Shown: positions 37,873-60,184 of the stretch, piece by piece
How positions within the stretch are numbered: position 1 is the first letter of the stretch
How the letters are laid out: the number at the start of each line of letters is the position of its first letter
Assembly (NCBI GenBank): GCA_020725605.1
Contig: DYER01000029.1
Location: 1 to 60,375 of the forward strand
Direction: 5' to 3'
Source of the DNA: Ammonifex sp.
GTDB lineage: Bacteria; Bacillota; Desulfotomaculia; Desulfotomaculales; DYER01
DNA: 60,375 bases
Position numbers and translations under genes: made by a program
The notes under the pieces: generated by a model
Databases searched by the model: none
What the model was told of the DNA's origin: nothing
Seen by the model: the letters and a program-made list of their open reading frames with translations, nothing else

Positions 37873-39603
37873 CTACTTCCGGCCCAGATAGCGGTAGAGG
37901 GTGGCCCGGCCCACGCCCAGGAGCCGGGCCGCCTTTACTTTGTTGCCGCCGGCCTCCCGCAGGGCCCGCTGCACGGCCTCGGGGGTGAGCTTCCTGCGGC
38001 CCGCGGACAACGAAGGGGCCGGTCGGGAGCCCTCGGTTACCTCCGGCGGCAGGTGCTCGGGCTCGACGGTGTCGCCCGCGCACTTCACCAGGGCGAACCG
38101 TATGGCGTTCTCGAGCTGGCGCACGTTGCCCGGCCAGTGGTACTCCATGAGGGCCGCCAGGGCCCGCTCCGAGAGCCGCACCCCGGGGCGCCGGGCCTCG
38201 GCGGCGTACCGCTCCAGGAAGTGGGCCGCGAGCAGGGGAATGTCGTTGCGCCGCTCCCGCAATGGGGGTAGCGTGATGGGCACCACGCACAGCCGGTAGT
38301 AAAGGTCCTCCCGGAACTCGCCCCGGGCCACCAGCTGCTTCAGGTCACGGTTGGTGGCGCTGACCACGCGCACGTCCACCTTTACGGTCCTTTCCGCGCC
38401 CACGGGCTCGAAGGTGCCCTCCTGGAGCACGCGCAGGAGCTTGACCTGCGTGGCGGGCGGCAGCTCCCCCACTTCGTCCAGGAAGATGGTGCCGCCGTCG
38501 GCCAGGGCGAAGCGGCCCTTCTTGTCCCGGATGGCCCCGGTGAAGGCGCCCTTGACGTGGCCGAAGAGCTCGCTTTCCAGGGTACCCTGGGGCAGGGCCC
38601 CGCAGTTGACGGCCACGAAGGGGCCGCGGGCGCGCCACCCCTCACGGTGGATGGCGAGGGCCACCAGTTCCTTGCCCGTGCCTGTCTCGCCCTGGATGAG
38701 CACCGGCACGTTGCTGTCGGCCACGCTGCGGATGAGGTCGAAGATGCGGAACATGCGGTGATCCCGTGTGATGATGCCGGCGAACTCCTGTTTCTCGCCC
38801 AGCCGGCGCTCGAGTTCCAGCTCGCGCGTCCGGTCGCGGTAGGAGGCCAGCACGCCGATGGCCCGACCGGCGTTGTCCCTCATGGGTACCACCGACATCT
38901 CCACCCGCCTGGTCTCCCCGCCCCTGGTGGCGATGTCCAGGGTGTAACTCACCTCGTGCTCAGGTACGCACATACCCTTTTCCGCGAAGGAGCACCTGTG
39001 CCCGCAGAAACCCCCGGGGAACACCTGGTAGCAGTCGCGGCCCAGCACCTCCTCGCGCCGGTAGCCCGTGATGCGCTCGGCCGCGCTGTTGAAGAAGAAT
39101 ATGCGGCGGGACAGATCGTGGGCCACGACGCCCTCGGTGAGGCTGTCGAGGACGCGCACGGCGTTGTCCTTCAGCGTCACCAGGGCCTGGAAGTAGCCGT
39201 AGGCGAAGAGGGAGTGGACGCGCCCATTGATTTCGTCCCGGCACTGCCTCAGGGCCCGGAGGAGTTCGGCCTCGTCCCGGTCCCCCGCCAGGGGATCGGG
39301 CAGGTTCCAGTAGACCACGCCGTGGATGCCCTGGAGCACCGGGTACTGCTCCCGCACCCGGGGGCTGAGCACCACCACCAGGTCGAAGGGCCGGGGGCCC
39401 AGTTCCTCCAGGGAGGGACCGGGGGCGGGGTCCACCTCCACGCCGGCCTCGGCCATGGCCCGCACCACCAACGGGTGGACCCGGCCCCTGCGGAGTCCGG
39501 CGGCCAGTACCTCAACACCGGGGGGCGCCAGGGCGCGGGCGAAGGCCCCGGCCATGGGGCCACGGCAGGCGTTGTTCTCGCCCACGAACAGGACCTGCTT
39601 CAC
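37873..39603 (-). CDS. sigma-54-dependent activator with an N-terminal degenerate LMW-PTP/ArsC-like domain and a PAS domain
   Basis: GTG 39603 overlaps the upstream stop (GTGA). The N-terminus VLFVGENNACRGPMAGA aligns to the LMW-PTP P-loop. It is followed by a PAS domain, then GETGTGKE, GAFTGA and a C-terminal HTH (AARLLGVGRATLYR). Confidence 0.85.
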   Translation of the reverse strand: MKQVLFVGENNACRGPMAGAFARALAPPGVEVLAAGLRRGRVHPLVVRAMAEAGVEVDPAPGPSLEELGPRPFDLVVVLSPRVREQYPVLQGIHGVVYWNLPDPLAGDRDEAELLRALRQCRDEINGRVHSLFAYGYFQALVTLKDNAVRVLDSLTEGVVAHDLSRRIFFFNSAAERITGYRREEVLGRDCYQVFPGGFCGHRCSFAEKGMCVPEHEVSYTLDIATRGGETRRVEMSVVPMRDNAGRAIGVLASYRDRTRELELERRLGEKQEFAGIITRDHRMFRIFDLIRSVADSNVPVLIQGETGTGKELVALAIHREGWRARGPFVAVNCGALPQGTLESELFGHVKGAFTGAIRDKKGRFALADGGTIFLDEVGELPPATQVKLLRVLQEGTFEPVGAERTVKVDVRVVSATNRDLKQLVARGEFREDLYYRLCVVPITLPPLRERRNDIPLLAAHFLERYAAEARRPGVRLSERALAALMEYHWPGNVRQLENAIRFALVKCAGDTVEPEHLPPEVTEGSRPAPSLSAGRRKLTPEAVQRALREAGGNKVKAARLLGVGRATLYRYLGRK

Positions 39604-42425
39604 GCCACGCCCTCCCCCACCACGCGCTCCAGGAACAGGGCCACGAGGCGCGGGTCCAGCGCGCTGCCGGCCAGGTCCCGGAGCCTGGCCGCGGCCTCCT
39701 CCGGGCCCAGGCCCTCTCCGGCGGGGGGCTCGGCGACGAGCGCCGCGTAGGTCTCGGCCACGGCCAGAACGCGGCATTCGGGCGGGATTTCCTCCCCCTT
39801 GAGCCCCAGGGGGTAGCCCAAGCCGTCCCACCGCTCGCGGTGCTTTAAGATCAGGTCCGCCACGGGCGCCAGCTCCGGCACGGCCAGAGCGATGCGGTAG
39901 CCGAGCTCCGGGTGGCGCTCCACCTCCCGCCTCTCCTCGGGGGTCAGGGCCCCCTCGGGCCGCGAGAGAACGCGCTCCCCCAGGCCCGCCTTGCCGATGT
40001 CGTGGTACCGCGCCAGGAGCAGGAGATCCGCGGTCTGCCTTTCGCCCAGGCCCGCGGCCCGGGCCAGGGCCGCGGCCAGCTTCCGCACCCGTCCGGCCCT
40101 GGCCGCGGCCGGGCGGTCCAGGTCGTCCAGCCTCCTGAAGATGGCCTGCACCACGGCCTCCCGGGCCCCGCGGTTGCCCAGGAGCTTATCCCGGTACATG
40201 TTGTGGTCCGCCTCCTTCAGCAGGTCGCGCAGGCGCGTGGCCGCGTCGCCCGTGGCGCAACCCACGGACACGCTCAGGGGAAGTTCCGGCCCGGAGGCGT
40301 TGTAGGCCGCCACGGCCTCGCGGATGCGCCGGCAGGCGTCCTCAACCACGGGCCGCGGGGCACGCGGCAGCAGGGCGGCGAACTCGTCGCCGCCGATGCG
40401 AGCCACCACGTCGCCGGAGCGGAAGCACTTCCTTGTCACGGTCGCGGTCGCGATCAACAGGCGGTCCCCGGCGTCGTGGCCCAGTACGTCGTTGACCAGC
40501 TTAAGCCCGTCCACGTCCCACATGACCACGCTCACCGGCGCGTAGCGGCCCCCCTCCAGGCGCCCCATCTCCTGGTCGAAATAGGCGCGGTTGTAGAGCC
40601 CGGTGAGGACGTCGTGGAAGGTGAGGAACTTCAGCTCCTCCTCCATGCGCCGGCGCTCGGTGATTTCCAGGGCCACCTCCACCGCGCCGACCACCCCGCC
40701 TCGCTCGTCCCGCACGGGATAGGCCCGGATGAACCAGAACCGGCCGTCGGGGGACCGGACCTCCCCCTCCCGGGGCTCGCCCGAACGCAGGGCGGCCTCC
40801 ACCGGACAGCCCTCGCAGGGCCGGTCGCGGCCGTACCACACCTCGTAGCAGCGGCGGCCCACCAGTTGCTCCGGGGACAGGCCCACCGAGGCGGCCGCAG
40901 CCCGGTTGGCCCACAGCACCCTCATCTCGGCGTCCTGGTAGACCACCAGCTCCAGCATGGCGTCCAGAATGAGGGCCTTCTCGCGCTCGGACCGGCGCAG
41001 GGCCTCCTCGGTGCGCTTCTGTTCGGTCACGTCCATGTAGTTGCCCAGGACGGCCCGCTCGCCGCGGCACCGGATGGAGGCCACGGTCTCCATCACCCAC
41101 CTTACCTCGCCTTGCTTGGTGACCACCCGGAACTCGTAGGGTGCGGAGCGCTCCCCCTTGAGCATCCGGATCACGTTTTCCCGCACCGCGTCCCGGTCCT
41201 CGGGCAGGACCAGTGCCAGGGAATCCGTGCCCAGAAGCTCCTCACGGCCGTAGCCCGTGTGCTGCTCGAACCGGGGGTTGACGAACCGGAACTTCCCCTC
41301 CTGCACGATGTAGATGCCGATGGGCGAGCTGGTGGCGACGGTCTTGAAAAGTTCCTCGCTCTCCCGCAGCCGCCGCTGGGTACGCTCCAGGGCGGCCAGC
41401 ATCTCGTTCACCGTTCCGGCCAGGACCGCCAGTTCCCCGCCCCCGGCTGGCGCCACGCGGACCCCCGCGTTGGCGGCCTGCCCAACGCGCCGCACCTCCT
41501 CGCCCAGGCGGGCCAGGGGCGAAAGCACCGTCCTCTCCAGGAGCAACCACGTCGCGGCACCGGTCACCAGGCCCACGGCCAGCAGCGACAGGCCGAAGTA
41601 GCGCAAAGCAACCCGGCCCTCCCGGTAGATCTCCCTTGGCACCTCGACCCCCAGCGCCAGGGCCGGGCGGCCGTAAATGTCGGATACCAGGGCGTAGCCG
41701 GCCACCCGCTCACCGTCGAGGGGCCGTACCAGGGGAACCCCGGGCGCCAGGGTGGCCACGGCCGCCCGCCAGTCCTCGGGCAGGTCCGGCACGTCGGGCC
41801 GCCGGAACTCCACGGAGAGCCGGGTGGTGGCGGCCAGGCGCGTGGTTTCGTCGCGGTCCAGGAAGCGACCGATAATCAGGGTTCCCCGCGCCGGCCCGCC
41901 GTACTCGCTGGTGAGGATGGGCCGCGCGGCCACGAGCATGGGGCCCGCCGGCAGCATGAGCACGCCCTTCGTCCCGCTCCGCCCGTCGGGGCCGTGGCGC
42001 AACAGGGGCGCATTTGGCACCAGGTGCTCTTTCAGGCCCGGCGGCAGGGGGGTCTCCACCCCTGCCTCCAGGTCGAAGGCCTTGCCGAACACAATGCGGC
42101 CCGTGGTGTCCACGAAGAGCATCAGGTTGAACCTCTGGTTCACGAAGGTCGTGTCCACCAGGTTGGCCCTGATGTACTCCTCGTTGCGGTCCACCACGAA
42201 CTCGTAGGTGTCGTCCCAGGCGGCCCAGTCCACGCAGCGGGTGTCCAGCGCGTCCAGGGTCTCGGACAGGGCCCCCAGGGCGCGCTCCACGTTGCGGCGC
42301 ACGCTCCGGTCCTCGAGCTCCGCGAAGCTGCGGCCCAGCACCTCCCAGGCCACAAGGTACAGGGCCGCCATCACACAGGCCAGCACCAGGCCCACCGTTA
42401 ACGGAATTTTCAGACGCAGGCTCAC
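39600..42425 (-). CDS. membrane sensor CHASE4-HAMP-PAS-PAS-GGDEF-HD-GYP
   Basis: An N-terminal TM helix is followed by the CHASE4 signature DWAAWDDTYEFV and two PAS domains. Then come RSGDVVARIGGDEF and the HD-GYP motifs (YHDIGK, HRERWDGLGYP). Confidence 0.9.
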   Translation of the reverse strand: MSLRLKIPLTVGLVLACVMAALYLVAWEVLGRSFAELEDRSVRRNVERALGALSETLDALDTRCVDWAAWDDTYEFVVDRNEEYIRANLVDTTFVNQRFNLMLFVDTTGRIVFGKAFDLEAGVETPLPPGLKEHLVPNAPLLRHGPDGRSGTKGVLMLPAGPMLVAARPILTSEYGGPARGTLIIGRFLDRDETTRLAATTRLSVEFRRPDVPDLPEDWRAAVATLAPGVPLVRPLDGERVAGYALVSDIYGRPALALGVEVPREIYREGRVALRYFGLSLLAVGLVTGAATWLLLERTVLSPLARLGEEVRRVGQAANAGVRVAPAGGGELAVLAGTVNEMLAALERTQRRLRESEELFKTVATSSPIGIYIVQEGKFRFVNPRFEQHTGYGREELLGTDSLALVLPEDRDAVRENVIRMLKGERSAPYEFRVVTKQGEVRWVMETVASIRCRGERAVLGNYMDVTEQKRTEEALRRSEREKALILDAMLELVVYQDAEMRVLWANRAAAASVGLSPEQLVGRRCYEVWYGRDRPCEGCPVEAALRSGEPREGEVRSPDGRFWFIRAYPVRDERGGVVGAVEVALEITERRRMEEELKFLTFHDVLTGLYNRAYFDQEMGRLEGGRYAPVSVVMWDVDGLKLVNDVLGHDAGDRLLIATATVTRKCFRSGDVVARIGGDEFAALLPRAPRPVVEDACRRIREAVAAYNASGPELPLSVSVGCATGDAATRLRDLLKEADHNMYRDKLLGNRGAREAVVQAIFRRLDDLDRPAAARAGRVRKLAAALARAAGLGERQTADLLLLARYHDIGKAGLGERVLSRPEGALTPEERREVERHPELGYRIALAVPELAPVADLILKHRERWDGLGYPLGLKGEEIPPECRVLAVAETYAALVAEPPAGEGLGPEEAAARLRDLAGSALDPRLVALFLERVVGEGVA

Positions 42426-42568: not shown

Positions 42569-43366
42569 TCAGGCCGCCGGGCCTTCGGACGGCTCCTCCT
42601 TCTCCAGGGCCGCGAGCAGCGCCTTCTCGCCGTTTCCGTCCTCGGGAAAGCCCACGATCCGGAAACGTACCGGGGTCACGCCCGCGCGCTCCAGCACCCT
42701 CTGTACCTTCTGGCGCACCACCTCGGCCCCCTCCCTGGGGGTGACGGGCAAAAGCAGCACCAGCCCCCCGCCCGGGGCCGGCAGGCAGGCGTCGGTTTCC
42801 CGCAGGACCGCGGCCACCCTGGCCCGCAGGTCCTCGACCTCCTCCGGGTCCAGGCCCGCGGGCAGACCCACCCCCAGCAGCGAGACCGGGGTGTTGCCCC
42901 GCCGGCCGCGCTTGACCTCCTTGCGTACTTCGGCCTCCAGCCGCAGGCGCAGCTCGGCGGGCGACGGCCCGGTCCGCGCCAGGGGGCCGACGATCTTCTC
43001 CAGCCGGGTCAAAAGGGCCTCGTCCGTGAAGGGCTTCAGCAGGTAGTCCACGGCCCCCAGTTCCACGGCCCGCCGCACGTCGTTGGGAGCCGCGGACACG
43101 GAAAGCACCATCACGGGCACGCGCGACAGCCCGTGTTCCTCCCGCAGGCGCCGCAGGGCCGTCAGGCCGTCCATTCCCGGCAGGTACAGGTCGAGGATGA
43201 CCAGGTCCACGCCGGCCACCAGCTCCGGAGCCGCCAGCAGGTCCTCGGCCCGGCGCATCTCCAGGACCTCCACATTGAGACCCGCCAGGGCGTTCTTGAC
43301 CCTGAGGCGTACCAGCGGCGAGTCGTCCACCACCAGCACGGTCTTTTTGTCCGCCAAAGGCATCAC
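42569..43366 (-). CDS. response regulator: REC domain plus degenerate GGDEF-like C-terminal domain
   Basis: The REC domain reads VLVVDDSP...LDLYLPGMDG...DYLLKPF. The C-terminal segment resembles a GGDEF domain but reads PGGGLVLLLP where GGDEF is expected. Confidence 0.8.
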   Translation of the reverse strand: MMPLADKKTVLVVDDSPLVRLRVKNALAGLNVEVLEMRRAEDLLAAPELVAGVDLVILDLYLPGMDGLTALRRLREEHGLSRVPVMVLSVSAAPNDVRRAVELGAVDYLLKPFTDEALLTRLEKIVGPLARTGPSPAELRLRLEAEVRKEVKRGRRGNTPVSLLGVGLPAGLDPEEVEDLRARVAAVLRETDACLPAPGGGLVLLLPVTPREGAEVVRQKVQRVLERAGVTPVRFRIVGFPEDGNGEKALLAALEKEEPSEGPAA

Positions 43367-43587
43367 CGCCGGTCACAATGCTGTGGTGCCGCGGAAGCAT
43401 ACCGCCCGCAATGATATTCGCGTCTTCCAAGCCGGATTCCTATCCGGGCGCCCCAAAAAAAATCGCCTGCCCAACCGGGTACCTGGCCTCGACCGCCGCG
43501 TGCCGTCGCCGCCGGGGAAGTCGCTACCCCCGCCCGGGGGCCTCTACTGCTCCCGATCGATCGGACGCCCCATGGCGAACGGAAGTT

Positions 43588-43617
43588 TTGGACGGGGGCA
43601 TCCGTCCGTGTTATAAT
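43588..43617 (+). promoter_or_regulatory. possible sigma-70 promoter of the Uma2 gene
   Basis: TTGGAC-N18-TATAAT, with an upstream TG (extended -10). A GGACGG/CCGTCC inverted repeat lies inside the spacer. Confidence 0.35.
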
Positions 43618-43659
43618 TCTCGTAACAAGCCCGCATTTTTGGCAACGGGGGGACCGAAC

Positions 43660-44208
43660 GTGGCCGTACCCGAGCACCTCAAGTTCACCTACGAGGATTA
43701 CCTGCTCCTGCCCGAAGACAGGAGGTACGAGCTGATAGGGGGCGACTTCTTCGTGACGCCTTCGCCGAAGCCCAGGCACCAGAGGGTGAGCCTCAACCTG
43801 GCCAACTTGCTGTGGTCCTACGTCCGGGCCCACGGGTCGGGAGAGGTCTACGAGGCCCCCCTGGACGTTTACCTCAGCCGCTACGACGTGGTGCAGCCGG
43901 ACGTGCTGTTCGTGCGCCGCGAGAACCTGGCCATCGTAGAGGAGAACTACGTCCGGGGCGCCCCCGACCTGGTCATCGAGATCCTTTCGGAGTCCACCCG
44001 CGAGCGCGACCTGGACCTGAAAAAGAAACTCTACGCCCGCCACGGGGTGAGGGAATACTGGATCGCGGACCCCGACGCCCGCACCGTCACAGTATACCTT
44101 CTGGAGGGTGACGCCTACGTACAGACCGGGGTCTACGGCCCGGCGGACACCTGGCGGCCCCACGTGCTGCCGGGCCTGGAGGTGAGGGGTGCCGAGGTGT
44201 TCGACTGA
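43660..44208 (+). CDS. Uma2-family (DUF820) endonuclease
   Basis: GTG follows GGGGGGA. Motifs are YELIGG, QPDVLFV, APDLVIEILSEST and EYWIADP. Confidence 0.85.
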   Translation: MAVPEHLKFTYEDYLLLPEDRRYELIGGDFFVTPSPKPRHQRVSLNLANLLWSYVRAHGSGEVYEAPLDVYLSRYDVVQPDVLFVRRENLAIVEENYVRGAPDLVIEILSESTRERDLDLKKKLYARHGVREYWIADPDARTVTVYLLEGDAYVQTGVYGPADTWRPHVLPGLEVRGAEVFD

Positions 44209-44412: not shown

Positions 44413-44796
44413 GTGCGGCGGGAAAGGGTCCGCGTGCTGGCGGACTCGGGCTGCACCATGCTGGTGCTGCCCCAGGACCTGGTGGAAAGGCTGGGCCTGG
44501 AGCTATCCGGGGAAAGGATCATCGTGACCTGCGCCGACGAGCGCAGGGAAGAAAGGCCGGTGGCCGGCCTGGTGACGGTCCGGACGGGGGACCGCAGCAT
44601 GCAGACCGATTGCGTGGTCGGCCCGCCGCTGAGCGAGCCCCTGCTGGGCCAGATCGTGCTGGAGCGGCTGGACCTGCTGGTGGACTGCCGGGAGGGGAAG
44701 CTGGGCCCCCGGCCCGAGTCGCCCTACCTGCCGTCGCTGAAGATGAAGGGCGTGCGCGGCGCGCACCGGGAGTCGGTCGCAGTGTGCACCCGCTAG
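44413..44796 (+). CDS. retropepsin-like (clan AA) aspartic protease; the N-terminal part lies in another frame (44330-44410)
   Basis: The active-site-like motif is VLADSGCTMLVLPQDLVERLGL (DSG). The ORF 44330.. (TTG after AGGAGG) encodes MGEVRVEILLENYHDALLARRGYL, the expected N-terminus, one frame off. Confidence 0.7.
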   Translation: MRRERVRVLADSGCTMLVLPQDLVERLGLELSGERIIVTCADERREERPVAGLVTVRTGDRSMQTDCVVGPPLSEPLLGQIVLERLDLLVDCREGKLGPRPESPYLPSLKMKGVRGAHRESVAVCTR

Positions 44797-44855: not shown

Positions 44856-44940
44856 TCAGAATTGTGACGATTGTGCCCCGGAGCGTTGGTCTGCGATCTA
44901 AGTAACTGCACCATCCGTGCCGAATACTAATAACGATGAC

Positions 44941-45031
44941 TAGGAGGCGAAGGGCAAACCCGCCGAAAGGCGGGGGCGCAAAGCCACGGGCCTACGGGTG
45001 CCGTTGCACCTACGGCGGCCGGGCTGCCTTA
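44941..45031 (+). promoter_or_regulatory. c-di-GMP-I (GEMM-I) riboswitch aptamer
   Basis: The sequence AGGGCAAACC-CGCC-GAAA-GGCG-GGGGCGCAAAGCC-ACGGGCC...GGGCUGCC matches the conserved core of the V. cholerae Vc2 aptamer as I recall it (GGGCAAACC..GAAA..GGGACGCAAAGCC.CCGGCC). It sits in the 5' leader of the pilin gene. Confidence 0.8.
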
Positions 45032-45087
45032 CGGGACCCCACCCGTAAGTAGGCGGACGAGCTTACGGGTGCGGGTCCCGCGGTTTT
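45032..45087 (+). terminator. riboswitch expression-platform intrinsic terminator
   Basis: A stem of about 19 bp pairs CGGGACCCCACCCGTAAGT (45032-45050) with GCTTACGGGTGCGGGTCCCG (45061-45080), with one bulge. CGGTTTT follows. A competing hairpin CTTACGGG/CCCGTAAG lies at 45029-45049. Confidence 0.7.
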
Positions 45088-45233
45088 AAGGGGCCGGCAC
45101 CGGGGGAGGTGAAAGGGGGTCCGGGGACGAAAGTACTAGTGTAAGCGGATTGCGTCCGAGCGGCCGCGGCCGGCGCCAGCGTGAAGGCGGCCCGCCGGGG
45201 CGGCGTGGAACCTTCCATGAAGGAGGACAAACA

Positions 45234-45827
45234 ATGCCGAGTAATATTGGGAAACACCTGAAGGAACGGCGCGGCTTCACCCTCATCGAGCTCATGATGG
45301 TCGTGGCCGTGATCATCATCCTGGCCGCGGTGCTGATACCCAGGATCGGGGCGGCGAGGAAAGAGGTGAAGGTCACCGCGGTGCTGCAGAACGCCAACAT
45401 GGTGCGCGGCATTCTCGAAACGCTCATTGACAAGAGCAACTACCAGAGCTCGGATAATGGTGCGAAGCTGCTGGGTGAGCGGCTCGAGGCGAAGCTCGAT
45501 GCTCTTGACGGCGACAACTCCGATGACGAAACCGACGCCACCAACCCTTACAATCAATCCGATAAGCTCGTAACCGGCACGACCGACAACGGGTGGGAAG
45601 ACTGGAGCGGGACGAGCAATAATGCCGTGGTTGCCATCGACTGGAACACGACGACTAGGGGCGGGGCCCCCAACTGGGCCGACGCTAGGTGGAGTGACCC
45701 TGATTTGGCCGGGTGTGTGATGGTGGCTATCTACCGCACCTCGGGTGATCAGACCTGGGCCGATGTGGTCCCCTACGACAGCGGCGGGACCCCGATGGAG
45801 GAAGCCAAACAGACCGTCAAGCCATAA
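45234..45827 (+). CDS. type IV pilin (major pilin candidate)
   Basis: ATG follows AAGGAGG. The class III signal is KERRG/FTLIELMMVVAVIIILAAVLIP. Confidence 0.9.
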   Translation: MPSNIGKHLKERRGFTLIELMMVVAVIIILAAVLIPRIGAARKEVKVTAVLQNANMVRGILETLIDKSNYQSSDNGAKLLGERLEAKLDALDGDNSDDETDATNPYNQSDKLVTGTTDNGWEDWSGTSNNAVVAIDWNTTTRGGAPNWADARWSDPDLAGCVMVAIYRTSGDQTWADVVPYDSGGTPMEEAKQTVKP

Positions 45828-45855: not shown

Positions 45856-47541
45856 ATGCGGGCGGGTAGCACCGGCGCGCGCCCCCGCCTCGGCGAGCTC
45901 CTGGTGAAGGCCGGGGTTCTGAGCCGGGAGCAGCTGGCGGCGGCGCTGGAGAAGCAAAAGCAAACGGGGCTGCGTTTGGGCGAGCTGCTCATCCGGGAGG
46001 GGCTCCTGACGGAGGAGCAGCTCGCCCGGGTGCTGCAGGAGCAGCTCGGTATTAAGGCCGTGGACCTCTCGCGGGCCTACATCGACCCGCGGGCGGTGCG
46101 GCTGGTGCCCGAGGCCCTGGCGCGGCGCCACGGCCTGGTGCCGCTACGGGTCGAGGACGGGCACCTGGTGGTGGCCATGCGCGACCCCCTGGACTACTTC
46201 GCCCTGGAGGACGTGCGGCTGGTGGCCCGCATGCCCGTGCGGCCGGTCATCGCCACCGGCAGCGCGGTGCAGGAGGCCCTGGGCCGGGCCTACGGCGGCG
46301 AGGCCGTGCGCCGGGCCCTGCCCGCGGCCCCGGCGGTGCCCCGGGAGGCGGCGGCCGAGGTGGCGGCCGCGGCCGACGTGGAGTCCGCGCCCGTGGTGCG
46401 CTTCGTCCGGACCCTGCTGGAGAACGCCGTGCGGGCCGGGGCCAGCGACGTGCACCTGGAGCCCGACGAGGACGGCGTGCGGGTGCGCTGGCGGGTGGAC
46501 GGTTTCCTGCGGGAGGCCCTCACCGTGCCGCCCGAGACCTACCCCTCGGTGGTGGCCCGCCTGAAGATCATGGCCAATTTGAACATCGCCGAGCACCGGG
46601 TGCCCCAGGACGGGCGCACGGCCGTACAGGTGGACGGCCGCGAGGTGGACGTGCGGGTCTCGGTCATGCCCGTGGTGCACGGGGAGAAGGTGGCCCTGAG
46701 GCTGCTGGACCGGTCCGGGCTCTTGCTGGACAAGCGCCGGCTCGGGCTCTCTCCCGCCAACCTCGCCCGCTTCGACGACCTGCTGCGGCGGCCCCACGGC
46801 ATTATCCTGGTCACCGGGCCCACCGGTAGCGGCAAGACCACCACGCTGTACGCCATGCTGCAGGAGTTGAACGACGCGAGCAAGAACATCGTCACGCTGG
46901 AGGACCCGGTGGAGTACCGCCTGAAGGGCATCAACCAGACCCAGGTGCACCCGCGGGCCGGGCTCACCTTCGCCGCGGGCCTGCGGGCCATTCTGCGCCA
47001 GGACCCGGACATCATCATGGTTGGCGAGATCCGGGACCTGGAGACGGCCGAGGTCGCGGTGCGCGCGGCCCTCACCGGGCACCTGGTGCTCTCCACCCTC
47101 CACACCAACGACGCGCCCTCGGTGGTTACCCGCCTGGCCGACATGGGCATTCCCCACTTCCTCATCGCGGCCTCCCTGGCGGGCTGCATTGCCCAGCGTC
47201 TGGTGCGAAAGGTGTGCCCGGAGTGCGCGGAGACCTACGAGGCCACCCTGCAGGAGAAGGAGATCCTGGGGGTCGAACGGTCCGACACGCCGGTGCTGCG
47301 CCGCGGCCGGGGCTGCCCCTGGTGCCTGAACACCGGATACCGGGGCCGCACGGGCATTTTCGAGATCCTGACGGTCACCGAGGCGGTGCGCCAAGCCATC
47401 GACCGCAAGGTTACCGCGGACGACCTCAGGGCGCTGGCGGGGCGCGAGGGCACGGTGGACCTTTTCGCCGACGGCCGGGAGAAGGTGCTGGCGGGCGAGA
47501 CCACCCTGGCCGAGCTGCTGCGGGTGACCCGCGGGCAGTAG
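45856..47541 (+). CDS. pilB: type IV pilus assembly ATPase PilB (GspE family) with an N-terminal MshEN-type domain
   Basis: Walker A is GPTGSGKTT. The Asp/His boxes and the tetracysteine CPEC...CPWC are present. The N-terminus has tandem RLGELLxxxGxLxxxQLxxxLxxQ motifs. Confidence 0.9.
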   Translation: MRAGSTGARPRLGELLVKAGVLSREQLAAALEKQKQTGLRLGELLIREGLLTEEQLARVLQEQLGIKAVDLSRAYIDPRAVRLVPEALARRHGLVPLRVEDGHLVVAMRDPLDYFALEDVRLVARMPVRPVIATGSAVQEALGRAYGGEAVRRALPAAPAVPREAAAEVAAAADVESAPVVRFVRTLLENAVRAGASDVHLEPDEDGVRVRWRVDGFLREALTVPPETYPSVVARLKIMANLNIAEHRVPQDGRTAVQVDGREVDVRVSVMPVVHGEKVALRLLDRSGLLLDKRRLGLSPANLARFDDLLRRPHGIILVTGPTGSGKTTTLYAMLQELNDASKNIVTLEDPVEYRLKGINQTQVHPRAGLTFAAGLRAILRQDPDIIMVGEIRDLETAEVAVRAALTGHLVLSTLHTNDAPSVVTRLADMGIPHFLIAASLAGCIAQRLVRKVCPECAETYEATLQEKEILGVERSDTPVLRRGRGCPWCLNTGYRGRTGIFEILTVTEAVRQAIDRKVTADDLRALAGREGTVDLFADGREKVLAGETTLAELLRVTRGQ

Positions 47542-47694: not shown

Positions 47695-48906
47695 GTGGAG
47701 TTCGCCTACCGGGCCGCGGACCCGAACGGCAAAACCGCAACGGGCGTACTGGAGGCCGCCGACGCCGCGGAGGCGCGGCGTATCTTACGCAACCGCGGCC
47801 TGCTGGTGCTGGAGCTGAGGCCCCGCCGCCCCTCCTGGCGTGAGGCTCTGGAGCGGCTCCTGTGGCGCGTGCCCGTGCCCCAGGTGGCCCTGTTCTGCCA
47901 GCAGCTGGCCTTCGCCCTGCGGGCCGGGCTGGACCTGCTGCGGGCCCTGGACGTGGTGCGGCGGCAGGCCCCCGGCCGGGCCGTGCGCCGCGAGGCCACG
48001 CGCCTCTGGCAGGAGGTGCAAAAGGGGCGTCCCCTCTCCCAGGCCATGGCGGACCGGGCCGGCACTATGCCGCCTCTGCTGGCCCAGATGCTGGCCGCGG
48101 GCGAGGCCGCCGGCAACCTGGACGAGACCCTGGCCCGCATGGCCGCGTACTACCGCCGGGAGGCGCACCTGAAGCAACGCCTGCGCAGCGCCCTGGCTTA
48201 CCCCGCCCTGCTCTTCACCGTGGCCGCGGGACTGGTTTTCTTCTTTCTCAATTTCCTCCTGCCCGAACTGCTCAAGGTTTTCGCCGAAACCGGCGCCCGG
48301 CTACCGCCCCTCACCCGGGGGCTGGTGGCCGTGGCCGGGCACGCACGCGTGTGGGTGCCCGCGGGCCTTGCCGCCCTGGCCGGCCTCGTCTTCCTTTTCG
48401 GCCCCGGGGCGTGCGGCCGGGTTCGGGCACTCCGCGACCGGACCGTGGTCCGCCTTCCCCTGGTGGGCCGGGTGGTGAGGGATGCCGTCCACGCCCGCTT
48501 CGCCCGCGGACTGGCGCTGCTGTTGCGCAGCGGCATGCCCCTGGTGCGGGCCCTGGAGCTGCTGGCCCAGACCGCGGGCCACACCCGGGCCGAGGCCGCG
48601 GCCCTGGCCGCGGCACGGGAGGTGCGGCGGGGCGGCCGCATCTCCTCGGTCGTTGCTGGCGAGGCCTTCTTCGACCCGGTGGTGGGCCAGATGACCGCCG
48701 TGGGCGAAGAAATCGGCGAACTGGAAAGGCTGCTGGAGGAACTGGCGGACTACTACGAGCAGCAGGTGGAGGCGGGTTTCGCGCGGCTGGTGGCCCTCAC
48801 CGAGCCCCTGGTCACCGTGGTGGTGGCCGCCGTGGTGGGTCTGCTGGTGATCTCGGTGCTCACGCCCATGTTCGACATGATCAAGCAGGTCCGGCACCTG
48901 CGCTGA
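47695..48906 (+). CDS. pilC: type IV pilus platform protein PilC (GspF family)
   Basis: There are two GspF repeats (FCQQLAFALRAGLDLLRAL; FARGLALLLRSGMPLVRAL). GTG start follows GGGGGG. Confidence 0.9.
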   Translation: MEFAYRAADPNGKTATGVLEAADAAEARRILRNRGLLVLELRPRRPSWREALERLLWRVPVPQVALFCQQLAFALRAGLDLLRALDVVRRQAPGRAVRREATRLWQEVQKGRPLSQAMADRAGTMPPLLAQMLAAGEAAGNLDETLARMAAYYRREAHLKQRLRSALAYPALLFTVAAGLVFFFLNFLLPELLKVFAETGARLPPLTRGLVAVAGHARVWVPAGLAALAGLVFLFGPGACGRVRALRDRTVVRLPLVGRVVRDAVHARFARGLALLLRSGMPLVRALELLAQTAGHTRAEAAALAAAREVRRGGRISSVVAGEAFFDPVVGQMTAVGEEIGELERLLEELADYYEQQVEAGFARLVALTEPLVTVVVAAVVGLLVISVLTPMFDMIKQVRHLR

Positions 48907-49147
48907 AGGCCACCCCGCGCCGGGTACCGCCGCCTGCGGGCCGGCGGTGCGCAAGGTTGGTGCCGGGCGCGGGACCGGAAAGAGGGGGTCCGGGATGAGC
49001 CACGACACCGGGCGAGAGGGCGGCGGAGCCCGGTTCCGCCCGCCGAAATGGACCCTGCCTTTCGCGGCCGACTCCGGTTGCGGCCGGGCTCCCGGGCGCG
49101 GGGGATCGGAGCCGCGCCGGCCGGCCGCTTCCAGACATCGCAAGGCG

Positions 49148-49660
49148 GTGACGGGGCGCCCGGGACGCGCGGCCACGGGCTTCACCCTGGTGGAGGTGAT
49201 GGCCGCGGTGGCCATCGTCGCGGTGCTGATGGCGGCCGCCCTCCCGCTCTACCACGTGCTGGCGGCCGAGTACCGCCTGGCCGGCGCCGCGGCGGACCTG
49301 GCCGCGGAGCTGGAGTACGCCCGGCGCCTGGCCCTCGAGCAGCGTGGCCACACGGGCGGGGGCGGCGGGCGGTACTTCGGCGTAACGGTGCTGCCGGACC
49401 GCTTCCTGCTGCGCCCGTACGACGGCACCACGCCCCTCGACCCGCCACTGCGCGAGACTCCCTTCCCACCGGGCGTCGAGGCCGCGGCCTTTAACGGCCT
49501 GACGCTGCCGGAGAACGGGGCTACGGTACGTTTCGACGCCCGCGGTTTGCCCCGCGACGAGACCGGCCGGGTAAGCGGCGGCACCTTCGGACTGCGCGAC
49601 GCCCGGGGGCGCACCACCACCGTGACCGTTTCGGCGGCCGGCCGGGTGGCGTCGGAGTGA
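49148..49660 (+). CDS. GspH/FimT-like minor pilin
   Basis: The prepilin signal is G/FTLVEVMAAVAIVAVLMAAALP. The start is uncertain: GTG 49148 gives a 10-aa leader, while the track ORF opens at 48947. Confidence 0.75.
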   Translation: MTGRPGRAATGFTLVEVMAAVAIVAVLMAAALPLYHVLAAEYRLAGAAADLAAELEYARRLALEQRGHTGGGGGRYFGVTVLPDRFLLRPYDGTTPLDPPLRETPFPPGVEAAAFNGLTLPENGATVRFDARGLPRDETGRVSGGTFGLRDARGRTTTVTVSAAGRVASE

Positions 49661-50085
49661 CGGGCCGAACGGAGGCCGGAGGCGCGCCGCGCCCCGGAAA
49701 GCCGACGCCGGCTGGTCGCGGGCCCGGGTACGGGCCACGGCCCCCCGACCTTCGGCCGCCACGTCCTGCGGACCGCCGCCGGGTCGGACCGCAGCCGCGG
49801 GCTACCCTCCGGCCGGGCCCTTACCGCCGCTGCGGCACCGCGCGGTGACCCGGCCGGCACGGGGACATGACGCCGACCCGCCGCAGAACGCCTGCGCGGG
49901 GCCACGCAAACCCGGACGCGCGCCCGCCACGGGGGCGGACCCTGGGCCGGTGGCAAACACCGGTGCCGCGCCGCCGGCACCGCAAAGACCTGACCACCGC
50001 ACCCCCGAACCCGCGTTGGGCTCCCCCGCGGGGGGCGGTGACCCGCACCGCAGGCGCGGCCGGACGACGGGAGGACGAGACCCCC

Positions 50086-50586
50086 ATGGCAGCGTCAGGA
50101 CCACCCGCAAGGGGTGTACGGCCCCAGGAGCCGCCGGGCAGACCTACCCGCGGTTCACAGGCCGCGGCATCCGGGCGCGCCCCGGTCCACCCGCGGCCGG
50201 CCGGCAGCTCCGGCGTCACGCTCCTGGAAGTGCTGGTGGCCGCGGGCCTGCTGGGACTGCTGCTGGGATACACGGCCTTCGCCTGGGGCCACCAGGCCCG
50301 CCTGGCCCGCGGGGCCCGCGAGGAGACGCGCATGGCCCTGGTGGCCCAGGCCCAGATGGAGATACAGCAGGCGAACCCCATCCGCCCCGGGGACCCGCCC
50401 TTCTCGTTCACCATACCCGAAGGCGTGGACCAGCTGGAGTACACCGGTACCTACGGCAGCGCGGAGCTACCGGGCACCGGATACTACTGGACCGTCACCG
50501 TGGTGGTGGACCCCCGCCTGCCCGGGCGGGAAAGCTTTCCCCTGGCGGCTTACGTGCTGAATCCGGAACAATGGGACCTGAGGTAA
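50086..50586 (+). CDS. prepilin-type minor pilin (PilV-like)
   Basis: ATG follows GGGAGGA. The signal G/VTLLEVLVAAGLLGLLLG comes after an unusually long, roughly 45-aa leader. Confidence 0.7.
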   Translation: MAASGPPARGVRPQEPPGRPTRGSQAAASGRAPVHPRPAGSSGVTLLEVLVAAGLLGLLLGYTAFAWGHQARLARGAREETRMALVAQAQMEIQQANPIRPGDPPFSFTIPEGVDQLEYTGTYGSAELPGTGYYWTVTVVVDPRLPGRESFPLAAYVLNPEQWDLR

Positions 50587-50702
50587 AAGGGCAGAGCGCG
50601 CCGAACCGAGGTGCGATACCCGCGGCCCCCGGAGCCGGGACCCGAGAAAAAATCCCCGCGTACCGGCCCCGGGGTACCGGGCCTTCCGCAACAGAGGGTT
50701 GC

Positions 50703-51350
50703 GTGTTCGGTGGTACGCGCCGGGCCGGGCGGGCCACCGGTCCCCGGAGGGACCCTGTGCACCGTCGGATTACGCCTTGGGGTGGCACCCCGGCACGCAC
50801 CGAGGTCCGGACGGCGGCCTTCACCCTACTGGAAGTACTCCTGGCCACCGCCCTTCTGGCCCTGCTCCTAGGCTACGTGGGCTCGGCCCTTTCCGGGCAG
50901 GCGCGGGAGCTGCGCCGGGGCCGGGCCGACGTCGAGGCCGTGGCCAGTGCCCGGCTGGCCACTTCCCTGGTCGTGGAGGCGGCGCGGCGGTACGATCAGC
51001 TGGAGGTGGCCGCGGACGGGCGGCGCCTTAGCGGCGGGCCCGAACGCGCCGGCGGGGGAGACGGCGCCGGACAGTGGGAACTCATCCTGAGCCTGGAGGA
51101 CCGGCGGCCGGACCGGGGACAGGGAGAGGCCCTCACACGGGACACCTTCTGGTACAACCGGGCCGCAGGCGTCCTGGAGCGCTACACCGGCGGCGCGTGG
51201 GACGCCGCGGTCGCGGGGCTGGCCGACGTGACACTGCGCAGGAAACAGGCGGGCAACGTAAAGTGGGTCGAACTGACGGTCACGGCCGAGCCGCCCGGCG
51301 CCACCGGCCCCTATACGGTGAGCACGTGGCTGCGGCTGGAGCGACCGTAG
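50703..51350 (+). CDS. prepilin-type minor pilin (PilW-like)
   Basis: AFTLLEVLLATALLALLLG, with Ala rather than Gly at position -1. The start is uncertain (GTG 50703 or 50757). Confidence 0.65.
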   Translation: MFGGTRRAGRATGPRRDPVHRRITPWGGTPARTEVRTAAFTLLEVLLATALLALLLGYVGSALSGQARELRRGRADVEAVASARLATSLVVEAARRYDQLEVAADGRRLSGGPERAGGGDGAGQWELILSLEDRRPDRGQGEALTRDTFWYNRAAGVLERYTGGAWDAAVAGLADVTLRRKQAGNVKWVELTVTAEPPGATGPYTVSTWLRLERP

Positions 51351-52453: not shown

Positions 52454-52483
52454 TAGACTTACACCCGATGTCACATTTATAAT
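52454..52483 (+). promoter_or_regulatory. sigma-70-type promoter upstream of pilMNO
   Basis: TAGACT-N18-TATAAT (perfect -10) lies in the only AT-rich patch of the 52.2-52.5 kb gap. Confidence 0.5.
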
Positions 52484-52494
52484 AATCGTAATAC

Positions 52495-53430
52495 GTGACA
52501 GAGGAGGTTGTGGCCCCCCTGTTCAGGTCCCGCCTAACCCTCAACGTGCGCCGGGAGTCCCTGGCCCTGCTGGCCGGCCGGCCGAGCCGCCGCCGGCCCC
52601 GCATCCTGGGGGCGGCGCTGGTGCCCCTTTCCCCTTCCCTGCTGGCCGAAGGGGTGCCCCTGCGGGAATCCGAGGTGGCCACGGCCCTGGCGCCGGTGCT
52701 CCGGGAGCGTAAATGGTTTGGGATGCCGGTACGCCTGGCCCTCTCGGCCGGGCAGGTGCTGACCCGGGTGGTGGCCCTGCCGCGCGTGGGCCGCCGCGCG
52801 GCGCACCGGGCGCTGCTGGAGGAGGCCGAGCAACTGCTCCCCATTTCCCTGGCCGACTACTACGTGGACTACCGTCCCCTGGCCCGCCGGCCTGCTGCGG
52901 ATGGCACCGAATCCTTCCTGATGGCCGGGGTGCCGAAGGCTCAGGTGGAGGGCTGGGCCGCGGTACTGGGGGACCTGGGGCTGACCGTGGAATGCGTGGA
53001 CGTACACCCCAACTGCGCGGTGCGGCTGCTGCGGGAATTGCGGCCGCGCGACGCGGCCCTGGTGGACGCCGGGCCCGGTGGGGTGCACGTGACCCTGGTG
53101 GGCGACGGCCTCTTTTTCCTGCACGCGGACCACCCGGGCTGGCCGCCGGAAGCGGAAGGTACGGCGGCGCTGGGGCTGACCTGGGAAACGCTGCGGCCCC
53201 ACCTGGAGTTCTTCGCGGCCCGCCACTTCGGCCGCACGGTGGAGGCCGTTTTCGTTACCGGAGAACTGGCGGCGCGGCCGGGCCTGTGCGCACGGCTGGA
53301 GCGCTTGGCCGGCCTGCCCGTGTGGGTCTTCTCCGCGCACGGTTCCTGGGGCTGGAGCGCCCGCCTGCCCCCGGGGTTCGACGCCAACCCCGGGGCCTGG
53401 GCCGTAAACCTGGCGCTCCTGCTGCGTTGA
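52495..53430 (+). CDS. pilM: type IV pilus assembly protein PilM
   Basis: The actin-like fold pattern is present (ALVDAGPGGVHVTLV..., FVTGELA). The start is GTG 52495, or GTG 52510 after GAGGAGG. Confidence 0.8.
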   Translation: MTEEVVAPLFRSRLTLNVRRESLALLAGRPSRRRPRILGAALVPLSPSLLAEGVPLRESEVATALAPVLRERKWFGMPVRLALSAGQVLTRVVALPRVGRRAAHRALLEEAEQLLPISLADYYVDYRPLARRPAADGTESFLMAGVPKAQVEGWAAVLGDLGLTVECVDVHPNCAVRLLRELRPRDAALVDAGPGGVHVTLVGDGLFFLHADHPGWPPEAEGTAALGLTWETLRPHLEFFAARHFGRTVEAVFVTGELAARPGLCARLERLAGLPVWVFSAHGSWGWSARLPPGFDANPGAWAVNLALLLR

Positions 53431-53442
53431 GGGGGACGTGTC

Positions 53443-53997
53443 ATGGCCAGGGAGCTGAACTTTCTTCCCGCCTCGGTAAGGCACCGGCGGGCCCGCCGCC
53501 GCAAGGCCCTGCTGGTGGCCACCGCAACCGCAGCCTTCCTGACCCTGGCCGCGGCCGGGGTGCTGGTGCCGGCGGCCCTGGCCAGGCACTACCGGGCCGA
53601 GGCCGCGGCCGTGCGGGAGCGCAACGCAGCCCTGGCGCCCCGGCTGGCCCTACAGCAGGAGGTAGCGGGCCTGGAGGGGCACTATCGAGAGTTGCAGGAC
53701 CGGCTCGCCCGGATCGAGGCCGCCCGCCGCACGGTCACGCCGGTGCTGGCCCGCCTGGCCGGCAACCTGCCGCCCGGCGTTTACCTGACCTCCCTGGAGG
53801 TCAGGCCCGGGGGCCAGGTACGGCTGGCGGCGGTGGTACACGGTCCGGACCAAACCGTGGACCTGGTGCGATCCTTGCGCAACAGCGGGCTCTTCGAATC
53901 CGTGGAGGTCACGGACATTCCCCTGGAGGGGGAGCCCCGCACCATCACCCTGGCGCTAAGCTTGCGGGCCGGGGAAGGTCGGGAGGGGCACCCGTGA
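53443..53997 (+). CDS. pilN: type IV pilus assembly protein PilN
   Basis: The N-terminal LNFLP motif is followed by a TM helix and a coiled coil. Confidence 0.85.
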   Translation: MARELNFLPASVRHRRARRRKALLVATATAAFLTLAAAGVLVPAALARHYRAEAAAVRERNAALAPRLALQQEVAGLEGHYRELQDRLARIEAARRTVTPVLARLAGNLPPGVYLTSLEVRPGGQVRLAAVVHGPDQTVDLVRSLRNSGLFESVEVTDIPLEGEPRTITLALSLRAGEGREGHP

Positions 53998-57034: not shown

Positions 57035-57580
57035 CTAAAACACCTGATACAGGTCCAGGCGCAAGCCCCGCAGGACCGCCGAGGCGAACGGCCTCTTGTC
57101 ACCGCGGCTGTAAAGTTCGACGGTTTCGCCCTCGGGGGTGATGGTACATACCTCGATGGTCCGGGCCACCGGATGCACGAACCATATTTCCCGGACCCCG
57201 TGGGTCACGTACAGCTTTTTCTTGAGGGTGCGGTCCCGCTCCGCGGTGGAGCCCGACAGGATCTCGATCACCAGGTCCGGCGCCCCCCTGATATTGGGCT
57301 CCGTGATAATGTGCTGCCGTTCCCGACTGATGAAAATGACGTCGGGCTGCACCACGTCCTCCTCCGTGAGGTAAACGTCTACGGGGGCGCTTATTACCAC
57401 CCCGAGATTGTTCTCCCCCACGTGCTGCCGCAGCATAAAGTACAGATTCCCGGCCACCATCTGGTGGATCACGCTGGGCGCCGGAACCACGTAGAGCTTC
57501 CCCCCGATGAGCTCGTACCTCTTTTCGTCTCCGAGGAGGCAGTAGTCCTCATAAGTGAACCTGATGCGCTCTACGGCCAC
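57035..57580 (-). CDS. Uma2-family (DUF820) endonuclease, paralog of 43660-44208
   Basis: GTG follows GGGGAGGTGG. Motifs are YELIGG, QPDVIFI, APDLVIEILSGST and EIWFVHP. Confidence 0.85.
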   Translation of the reverse strand: MAVERIRFTYEDYCLLGDEKRYELIGGKLYVVPAPSVIHQMVAGNLYFMLRQHVGENNLGVVISAPVDVYLTEEDVVQPDVIFISRERQHIITEPNIRGAPDLVIEILSGSTAERDRTLKKKLYVTHGVREIWFVHPVARTIEVCTITPEGETVELYSRGDKRPFASAVLRGLRLDLYQVF

Positions 57581-57766
57581 GTCCGCCACCTCCCCATCCG
57601 GCCCGAAGCCCGCTCCCAAGGGGTACCGGTCCCCGGACCTCTACCCGCGGGCCGAAGCCTCTCGCGCCGATTGTACCATGCAGCCCGGCGGGCCGCAAGG
57701 GCGCCGGCCACCGCGGGCTCCCTGACGGGTCCTACCCGATCCCGGCCATGGGCGCTCGGGCGACCC

Positions 57767-59905: not shown

Positions 59906-60184
59906 TGTGCATCCCCAGTTTAGCGGCAATTCGACCCTTCCGGGTCGAATTCCTGCCACCGGCGCCGAAATTTCCCCGGTACCGCGCCGGAACTCCCGCA
60001 CGCTGCCTCGCCGTACCTCCACCACGGCCGGGCGTGCCGCCAGTTCGGGGTGAATACAGGAGTAGCTGGCTCCCGAATCGAACAACGCCTCCGGTTCGGC
60101 CTCACCCATCGAGCCCTTCAGCCTGATGGTTTTGTAAGATTGCGGCGTGACTTCGCCCCCATAAGATTTGTGCCCGGCTCCGGC
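59906..60184 (-). pseudogene. retropepsin-like aspartic protease remnant, in frame with and upstream of the secreted protein
   Basis: The frame reads ...KTIRLKGSMGEAEPEALFDSGASYSCIHPELA, with a DSGA active-site motif. It has no proper start, and no stop before the signal-peptide Met at 59905. Confidence 0.45.

Follow-up and report, generated by a model that had tools for sequence, protein, structure and literature searches.

A 60,375-nucleotide (nt) stretch of the genome of Ammonifex sp. (contig DYER01000029.1), referred to here as the window, carries in the leader of a type IV pilus operon an element that we identify with high confidence as a bona fide canonical class I cyclic-di-GMP (c-di-GMP) riboswitch, of the family known as GEMM-I. 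The aptamer occupies positions 44944-45032 of the forward strand, and 201 nt separate it from a prepilin gene that follows on this strand, a 5' placement in keeping with class I elements, which precede genes of the environment, membrane and motility type. Between the two are a long, very stable hairpin and a short U tract, and the riboswitch probably controls the pilus operon by premature termination of transcription, most likely as an OFF switch. Both the terminating role of the hairpin and the OFF sign are suggested by the anatomy of the leader and by comparison with its relatives.

The class I aptamer and its conservation

When the whole window was scanned against Rfam (cmscan, gathering thresholds), a single match was returned, to RF03167 (c-di-GMP-I-GGC) at 44944-45032 (+), scoring 70.6 bits (cutoff 59, E = 1e-14). 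One lower-scoring match of the same clan was suppressed in that scan, where RF01051 (c-di-GMP-I) was hidden by clan competition with RF03167. In a rescan of positions 44950-45028 alone, which omits the P1 flanks that RF03167 models, RF01051 came out on top with 69.3 bits (cutoff 35, E = 2e-14). The two families thus both exceed their gathering thresholds, in agreement with an initial annotation of this DNA that had proposed a GEMM-I element and named RF01051 as the family to compare it with. The core elements listed in that annotation were also all found in 44941-45087 on the forward strand: GGGCAAACC (44952-44960), the hairpin CCCGCC-GAAA-GGCGGG (44959-44974), GGGGCGCAAAGCCACGGGCC (44973-44992) and GGGCTGCC (45021-45028).

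The aptamer consists of a P1 helix (44944-47 with 45028-32), a first hairpin (44954-44979) with its GAAA tetraloop at 44965-68, an AAA linker between the hairpins (44980-82), and a second hairpin (44982-45025) with a distal stem-loop at 44996-45011. In the Vc2 aptamer, G20, A47 and C92 make contact with the ligand, and a universal pair, C44-G83, joins the two helices (PMC4744006); this pair and the AAA linker are features of class I (PMC4744006, PMC1950547). By alignment to both Rfam consensus sequences, the equivalents of the ligand contacts are canonical in the window (G44953 for G20, A44980 for A47 and C45027 for C92), and C44977-G45018 aligns to the interhelical Watson-Crick pair. The RNA would presumably bind c-di-GMP. 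Its tetraloop-receptor region is non-standard, reading CCUACG/UACGG versus CCUAAG/UAUGG in the 11-nt motif, and among close orthologs it takes the forms UACGG, CACGG and UAGGG; non-standard tetraloop receptors were noted for GEMM by Weinberg 2007 (PMC1950547).

The pairing scheme holds well beyond the window. In a set of nine aptamers taken from the leaders of related pilus operons, 90.7% of cells keep the GEMM-I pairing, as compared with 27-48% when the partners are slid by 1-3 columns. Four pairs change on both sides in this set, and the covariation score was reached in only 1 of 500 shuffles.

Orthologs of the pilus genes were found via a protein database plus contig look-ups, and their loci are designated here by numbers preceded by L. 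For the assembly ATPase PilB, three uncultured orthologs at 91-93% identity are followed by a drop to about 58% in Desulfotomaculia-like Bacillota. The best homologs of the pilin are 43-46% identical and reside in L161-163, L164 and L165, all of which share the order GEMM-I, long leader, pilin, PilB with an MshEN domain, PilC. A GEMM-I aptamer is also found 5' of the pilus operon for more distant pilin homologs (L166/L167, L170-173, L175, L001, L002, L003 and L004), and the layout in which the aptamer precedes the prepilin gene recurs in L161, L164, L165, L166, L170, L175, L001 and L004. The association between GEMM-I and the pilus operon characterizes this pilus family as a conserved trait and extends beyond the window.

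Two further PilB orthologs at 92-93% identity, L176 and L177, are on contigs that stop short of the leader. A pilin search of GTDB species genomes gave matches of 30-40% only, and a PilB search of metagenome contigs gave 47% at best, with a GEMM-like core found by regular expression in none of the 80 loci concerned. An exact-sequence search for the pilin and PilB of the window gave no match on record.

One of the more distant leaders has an unusual form. In L003 (2655-2775; compare L004:640-675), an insertion of ~110-120 nt seemingly interrupts the aptamer within the 3' half of its second hairpin. The insert is bordered by the inverted repeats GGCTGTTCAAAAAC...GTTTTTCAACAGCC and so could form a stem-loop of its own. 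Past the insert, the 3' strand of the aptamer and the platform resume, almost identical to those of L004, and Rfam aligns the 5' part only (42.8 bits).

Expression platform and proposed direction of control

The aptamer runs into a hairpin at 45032-45080 (+), with a 5' arm at 45032/33-45049, a 12-nt loop at 45050-61 and a 3' arm at 45062-45079/80. In the minimum free energy (MFE) fold, the stem extends from C45032-G45080 through G45049-C45062 with a single bulge, C45072. This G+C-rich stem of 17-18 bp, at about -33 kcal/mol, ranks 12th of 40,216 in an energy scan (52-nt windows, both strands), which was used in place of a gapless inverted-repeat search since the latter misses the hairpin owing to the bulge. 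A U tract, TTTT (45084-45087), comes after the stem and is preceded by the conserved spacer GCGG (45080-83). A terminator of ~19 bp with a TTTT run had been annotated here; the stem is real and the TTTT is present, but the stem is 17-18 bp long and 3-4 G/C bases intervene before the TTTT.

Part of this hairpin can be captured by a smaller one. The segment CTTACGGG (45028-35) pairs with CCCGTAAG (45042-49) to give a predicted antiterminator of 8 bp with a 6-nt loop (45028-45049, +), with a computed energy of -12.2 kcal/mol. This competing hairpin had been placed at 45029-45049 in the initial annotation, one base off its true span, and was correctly said to use the 3' strand of P1 as its 5' arm. 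The segment CTTACGGG is the P1 3' strand plus GGG (45028-45035), an exact copy of it begins the 3' arm of the terminator (45062-45069), and both copies are complementary to CCCGTAAG in the terminator 5' arm (45042-45049). Because the P1 3' strand is identical, and not complementary, to the start of the terminator 3' arm, the two compete for one partner. There are five occurrences of CTTACGGG or its complement in the window, against ~1.9 expected, and three of the five fall inside the 42-nt platform.

This three-segment topology, in which the P1 3' strand and the terminator 3' arm are copies that share a complement, points to an OFF switch: the ligand would close P1, and the terminator would form. 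According to this model, the transcript would start just upstream of 44944 and the aptamer (44944-45032) would fold co-transcriptionally. Binding of c-di-GMP by G44953, A44980 and C45027 would close the short P1 and sequester CUUAC (45028-32). The complement CCCGUAAG (45042-49) would then remain free to pair with the downstream copy CUUACGGG (45062-69), the 17-18 bp hairpin (45032-45080) would zip, and RNA polymerase would halt at the U tract (45084-87). In the ligand-free state, P1 would be open and the upstream copy of CUUACGGG (45028-35) would pair with CCCGUAAG as the 8-bp antiterminator. This structure would have to be displaced before the terminator could form, and the result would be read-through into pilA-pilB-pilC and beyond.

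In length-by-length MFE folds, the antiterminator is seen at transcript ends 45049-45065 and the terminator from about 45076. The barrier to refolding from one to the other is about 10.4 kcal/mol, a rough direct-path estimate made without simulation. With usual prefactors this corresponds to seconds, slower than the polymerase clears the U tract and therefore enough for a kinetic switch. The main stem of the terminator overlaps the aptamer by 1 nt only (C45032), so that bound ligand cannot block it.

Hardly any change is seen in the aptamer and platform of L161, L164 and L165, and none in their antiterminator hairpin; the leader past the terminator is not alignable between the window and L161 on one side and L164 and L165 on the other. 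The pair A45036-U45076 of the terminator stem is G.U in L161 and L165 and G-C in L164, forming a compensatory series, and coordinated deletions in L164 yield a perfect 16-bp stem. The terminator loop varies at 5 of its 12 positions among close orthologs. The three-segment topology is found in the orthologs L161 and L164 and, in different sequence forms, in L166/L170/L004, L175 and L002, where the U tract comprises 5-6 U directly after the stem.

Several points weigh against an OFF switch acting through termination. As the four nearest orthologs are close kin (PilB 91-93% identical), the lack of change in the switching segments is of limited evidential value. The U tract is of 4 nt only and begins 3-4 G/C bases past the stem, which makes it weaker than a canonical tail, and a consensus terminator scan did not flag the hairpin and U tract at 45032-45087. 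The short P1 helix is one that nearest-neighbour energies predict poorly. The terminator (-33 kcal/mol) wins over the antiterminator (-12.2 kcal/mol) at equilibrium, whether the aptamer is closed or not; as the terminator is favoured in both states, regulation would rest wholly on kinetics, of which our estimate is rough. The OFF sign also opposes the activation by c-di-GMP that is expected of an MshEN-type PilB, and it is the reverse of the sign known for pilA1 of Clostridioides difficile. Among class I riboswitches an ON switch (Bc2) exists, and a review cautions against extrapolating the sign (PMC6366702).

Some of these properties would suit a different role for the hairpin. It is possible, though we consider it unlikely, that the aptamer is real and the hairpin is not a ligand-controlled terminator, so that the hairpin would serve as a constitutive attenuator or as an RNA-stability or processing element, or control would be exerted elsewhere in the 150-560 nt leader. 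The weak U tract and the negative consensus scan fit this explanation, as do the absence of any enrichment of terminator-like sites in this genome window, the formation of the hairpin in both states at equilibrium, and a conserved GGAGGTGAAA block further down the leaders. The class I riboswitches of Vibrio cholerae indeed act without termination (PMC6366702). However, three segments arranged in this mutually exclusive way are statistically unusual, and the design recurs in independent sequence forms 5' of homologous pilus operons with canonical U tracts. The stem, moreover, shows compensatory change while the loop drifts.

A further alternative keeps the same canonical aptamer and the terminator and reverses the sign. 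In such an ON switch, a lower stem formed by GCUGC (45023-27) and GCGGU (45080-84) would carry the hairpin to the U tract, and the ligand would block this extension by locking the base of P3 and C92 in the aptamer, thus weakening the terminator and raising expression of the pilus genes. The sequence GCGG(U/C) past the stem is kept in all four orthologs and is able to pair with GCUGC; without the lower stem, the U tract is 3-4 nt from the hairpin. Many GEMM terminators were reported by Weinberg 2007 to overlap the 3' hairpin, and ON logic was predicted for them (PMC1950547). The ON sign would also agree with activation of the MshEN PilB by c-di-GMP and with the C. difficile pilA1 phenotype. It is because of this better biological fit, MshEN ATPases being activated and C. 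difficile pili being induced by c-di-GMP, that the ON switch keeps a small share of our belief; we nevertheless regard it as improbable. The lower stem contributes only -4.1 kcal/mol across a 5-nt bulge, and it loses to the 10-bp GC-rich P3 even in the ligand-free state (computed at -54.0 vs -59.6 kcal/mol). It is absent from the MFE folds at transcript ends 45028-45090 and appears transiently from about 45092 in one series. The exact duplication of CTTACGGG and the presence of its complement are left unexplained by the ON model, and in the lower-GC relatives the topology is of the OFF type and the U tracts are canonical.

That the RNA is instead a c-di-GMP-I-GGC variant sensing a ligand other than c-di-GMP is very improbable: RF03167 does rank first in Rfam for the full element, above its gathering score, in the window, L161 and L175, but its consensus around A47 is GACGC-G-AAgCc whereas the window reads GGCGC-A-AAGCC with the canonical A (A44980), L161 and L175 likewise carry A at this position, and RF01051 exceeds its cutoff by 34 bits. 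The variant and the window have the entire GEMM-I scaffold and the variable P3 tip in common; the consensus G at A47 is absent from the latter. L164 and L165, in which the core is the same and the P3 tip is shorter, are assigned to RF01051 (76.8 and 66.6 bits), whereas L161, whose P3 tip is long as in the window, is assigned to RF03167 (69.9 bits). The choice of Rfam model is thus set by the P3 tip, the tetraloop-receptor region and the P1 flanks, not by the binding pocket. The G at the G20 position implies that the RNA is not of the cyclic AMP-GMP (cGAMP) type either. We take 'GGC' to name G20/G47/C92, in line with the RF03167 consensus; the variant was defined by Weinberg et al. 2017 (PNAS), and a paper of the same year in NAR makes no mention of it. 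Judged from its nucleotides, the 'GGC' label of the window element stems from the atypical P3 tip and is no sign of a different ligand. This amounts to an annotation trap, in which the best-scoring Rfam label would falsely hint at an orphan ligand despite canonical pocket nucleotides.

Leader, pilus operon and neighbouring genes

Upstream of the aptamer is an AT-rich block (44926-44935, +) that is conserved in the alignment and holds a -10-like hexamer, AATAAC (44930-35), which reads AATAAT in L161 and GATAAT in L164. This putative promoter, for which the conservation of the block speaks, would have transcription begin at about 44941-44944, where P1 has its 5' end. A sigma-70 consensus scan gave no match upstream of the aptamer.

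In the remaining leader (45088-45233), no further Rfam match was found. A conserved block, GGAGGTGAAA (45105-45114, +), lies ~20 nt past the terminator in all four orthologous leaders; it reads GGAGGTGGAA in L164 and L165, and the rest of the downstream leader diverges. The GGAGGTG block resembles a Shine-Dalgarno sequence, and a leader peptide was sought after it, with no plausible start codon found at suitable spacing. The Shine-Dalgarno sequence of the prepilin gene itself is GAAGGAGG (45219-45226, +). The small hairpin CCTTC-CAT-GAAGG (45211-45223) of the initial annotation exists and overlaps GAAGGAGG, and with 5 bp only it is weak. As a conserved feature it was rejected, being absent from the nearest ortholog, L161.

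The gene that follows was rightly annotated as a type IV pilin gene. It encodes a prepilin of 197 amino acids (45234-45827, +; Pfam N_methyl, E = 7.5e-6) with a class III signal peptide, ...KERRG/FTLIELMMVVAV, and its homologs in L161, L164 and L165 are syntenic with it. Next come a PilB-type assembly ATPase with an N-terminal MshEN domain (45856-47541, +; Pfam T2SSE, E = 7.5e-136; MshEN, E = 1.7e-22), a PilC-type platform protein (47695-48906, +; Pfam T2SSF, E = 5e-57) and a GspH-like minor pilin (48947-49660, +; Pfam N_methyl and GspH), whose true start is probably later than 48947. Further N_methyl proteins (about 49867-51350), pilM (52495-53430, +; Pfam PilM_2) and pilN (53443-53997, +; Pfam PilN) follow. 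The cluster had been called complete, which is not borne out, since neither a prepilin peptidase nor PilT was found among the open reading frames scanned.

Just 5' of pilM (52495) there is a promoter-like sequence, TAGACT-18-TATAAT (52454-52483), with 10 of 12 matches. The 40-60 kb region has six such sites where 0.6 would be expected, which raises the possibility of a promoter internal to the pilus cluster and outside riboswitch control.

The MshEN motif is a 24-residue sequence, RLGxx(L/V/I)(L/V/I)xxG(L/V/I)(L/V/I)xxxxLxxxLxxQ (PMC5013675). By regular expression, PilB of the window has both c-di-GMP-binding motifs without deviation (amino acids 11-34 and 40-63), separated by a 5-residue spacer, KQTGL, of canonical length. 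In the PilB proteins of the more distant loci L166 (2024-3510), L170 (2035-3519) and L174 (2158-3579), the first motif is perfect and the second departs from the strict consensus (e.g. RLGQVLIKDGYLTQQDLTAVLESQ). Binding of c-di-GMP by PilB may thus differ across the GEMM-I-associated pilus family. The pilB coding region of the window also contains a hairpin at 45978-46027, over the codons of the second MshEN motif, whose two 23-nt arms are complementary at 87%. At about -40.7 kcal/mol, this very stable hairpin belongs to the top six 52-nt segments of the whole window in stability.

Regulatory genes lie upstream of the riboswitch on the opposite strand. A protein with the domains CHASE4-HAMP-PAS-GGDEF-HD_5, of HD-GYP type, is encoded at 39600-42425 (-; Pfam) and is likely, from this domain content, to be a c-di-GMP synthase/phosphodiesterase. 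The same gene, of 941 amino acids, is found upstream in L161 and L162. It is accompanied by a response regulator gene (42569-43366, -), which is syntenic in L161 and L162, and by a gene for a sigma-54 activator with PAS and low-molecular-weight phosphatase domains (37873-39831, -).

The window further contains two Uma2-family genes, putatively restriction endonuclease-like, at 43378-44208 (+) and 57035-57619 (-). An aspartyl-protease-like gene (44413-44796) lies between the regulator genes and the riboswitch, and the same pair is found ahead of the riboswitch in L161 and L164. Towards the end of the window, a 780-amino-acid protein (57767-60109, -) has fn3 and CarboxypepD_reg domains and a C-terminal dockerin type I domain, which hints at a cellulosome-like or surface-anchoring system.

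Relation to known c-di-GMP systems

The association between GEMM-I and pili is not new in kind. In the first published list of GEMM-associated genes, pilM, pilO, pilQ, pulF and cpaA were already present (PMC1950547, Table 2). The initial annotation had considered a class I element in front of a pilus cluster to be noteworthy; the arrangement is real, but the GEMM-pilus association has been known since 2007, and nothing here alters the picture of this riboswitch class. What the window adds is a clear and conserved case, from uncultured high-GC Bacillota, in which type IV pili are associated with a class I c-di-GMP riboswitch.

A second point of contact with c-di-GMP is found in the same operon. 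Like the MshE/MshEN ATPases, known from the MSHA pilus of V. cholerae, PilB of the window has both motifs and the 5-residue spacer; in this case the receptor is a protein, and binding is predicted. As the operon-encoded PilB has an intact MshEN domain, the same c-di-GMP signal would be sensed twice, first by the RNA and again by the protein. To our knowledge, there has been no analysis of an MshEN ATPase paired with a GEMM-I leader on one operon. One could speculate, and we do so with considerable doubt, that c-di-GMP acts twice with opposite signs, the riboswitch shutting off the production of new pilin, PilB and PilC while MshEN switches on existing PilB. If true, this would make an incoherent circuit, giving a pulse or a band-pass window of piliation, and the circuit would be conserved in a group of anaerobic and thermophilic Bacillota in which GEMM-I leaders and MshEN-type ATPases are present in all the pilus operons. 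Together, the riboswitch, the MshEN PilB and the adjoining GGDEF/HD-GYP gene would make a compact locus for c-di-GMP sensing at the RNA and protein levels.

At the level of the aptamer, the closest comparison is with Vc2, from the tfoY leader of V. cholerae. The two hairpins, the GAAA tetraloop, the AAA linker, the G20/A47/C92 contacts and the C44-G83 pair are all matched in the window. In contrast to Vc2, the tetraloop receptor of the window is non-canonical and the P3 tip is longer, and the consensus A43 and A82 are both G, as they are in L002 and L164. Vc2 acts without a terminator (PMC6366702), unlike the platform predicted here.

In the mode of control, the window resembles Cd1 (Cdi-1-3), a class I riboswitch of the C. 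difficile flgB operon in which the ligand raises termination, making it an OFF switch (PMC6366702); the other functional class I riboswitches of C. difficile belong to the same comparison. Cd1 and the window element each lie in a Bacillota genome, in the 5' leader of an operon for a surface appendage, and each GEMM-I aptamer is followed by an intrinsic terminator, a predicted one in the window; the topology proposed for the window is the same. However, Cd1 controls flagellar genes and is experimentally validated, whereas the element of the window precedes pilus genes and its function is predicted. The window also differs in its genome of about 70% G+C, in a much longer and stronger hairpin, and in a tail of only 4 U.

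In the genes under control, the nearest counterpart is Cdi-2-4, a class II riboswitch through which c-di-GMP turns C. difficile pilA1 on, via transcription termination (PMC6366702). Each is a c-di-GMP riboswitch preceding the coding sequence of a major pilin in a Gram-positive type IV pilus operon, but Cdi-2-4 has the class II fold. The sign predicted for the window would thus be opposite to that of the one Gram-positive case studied, C. difficile pilA1 (class II, ON).

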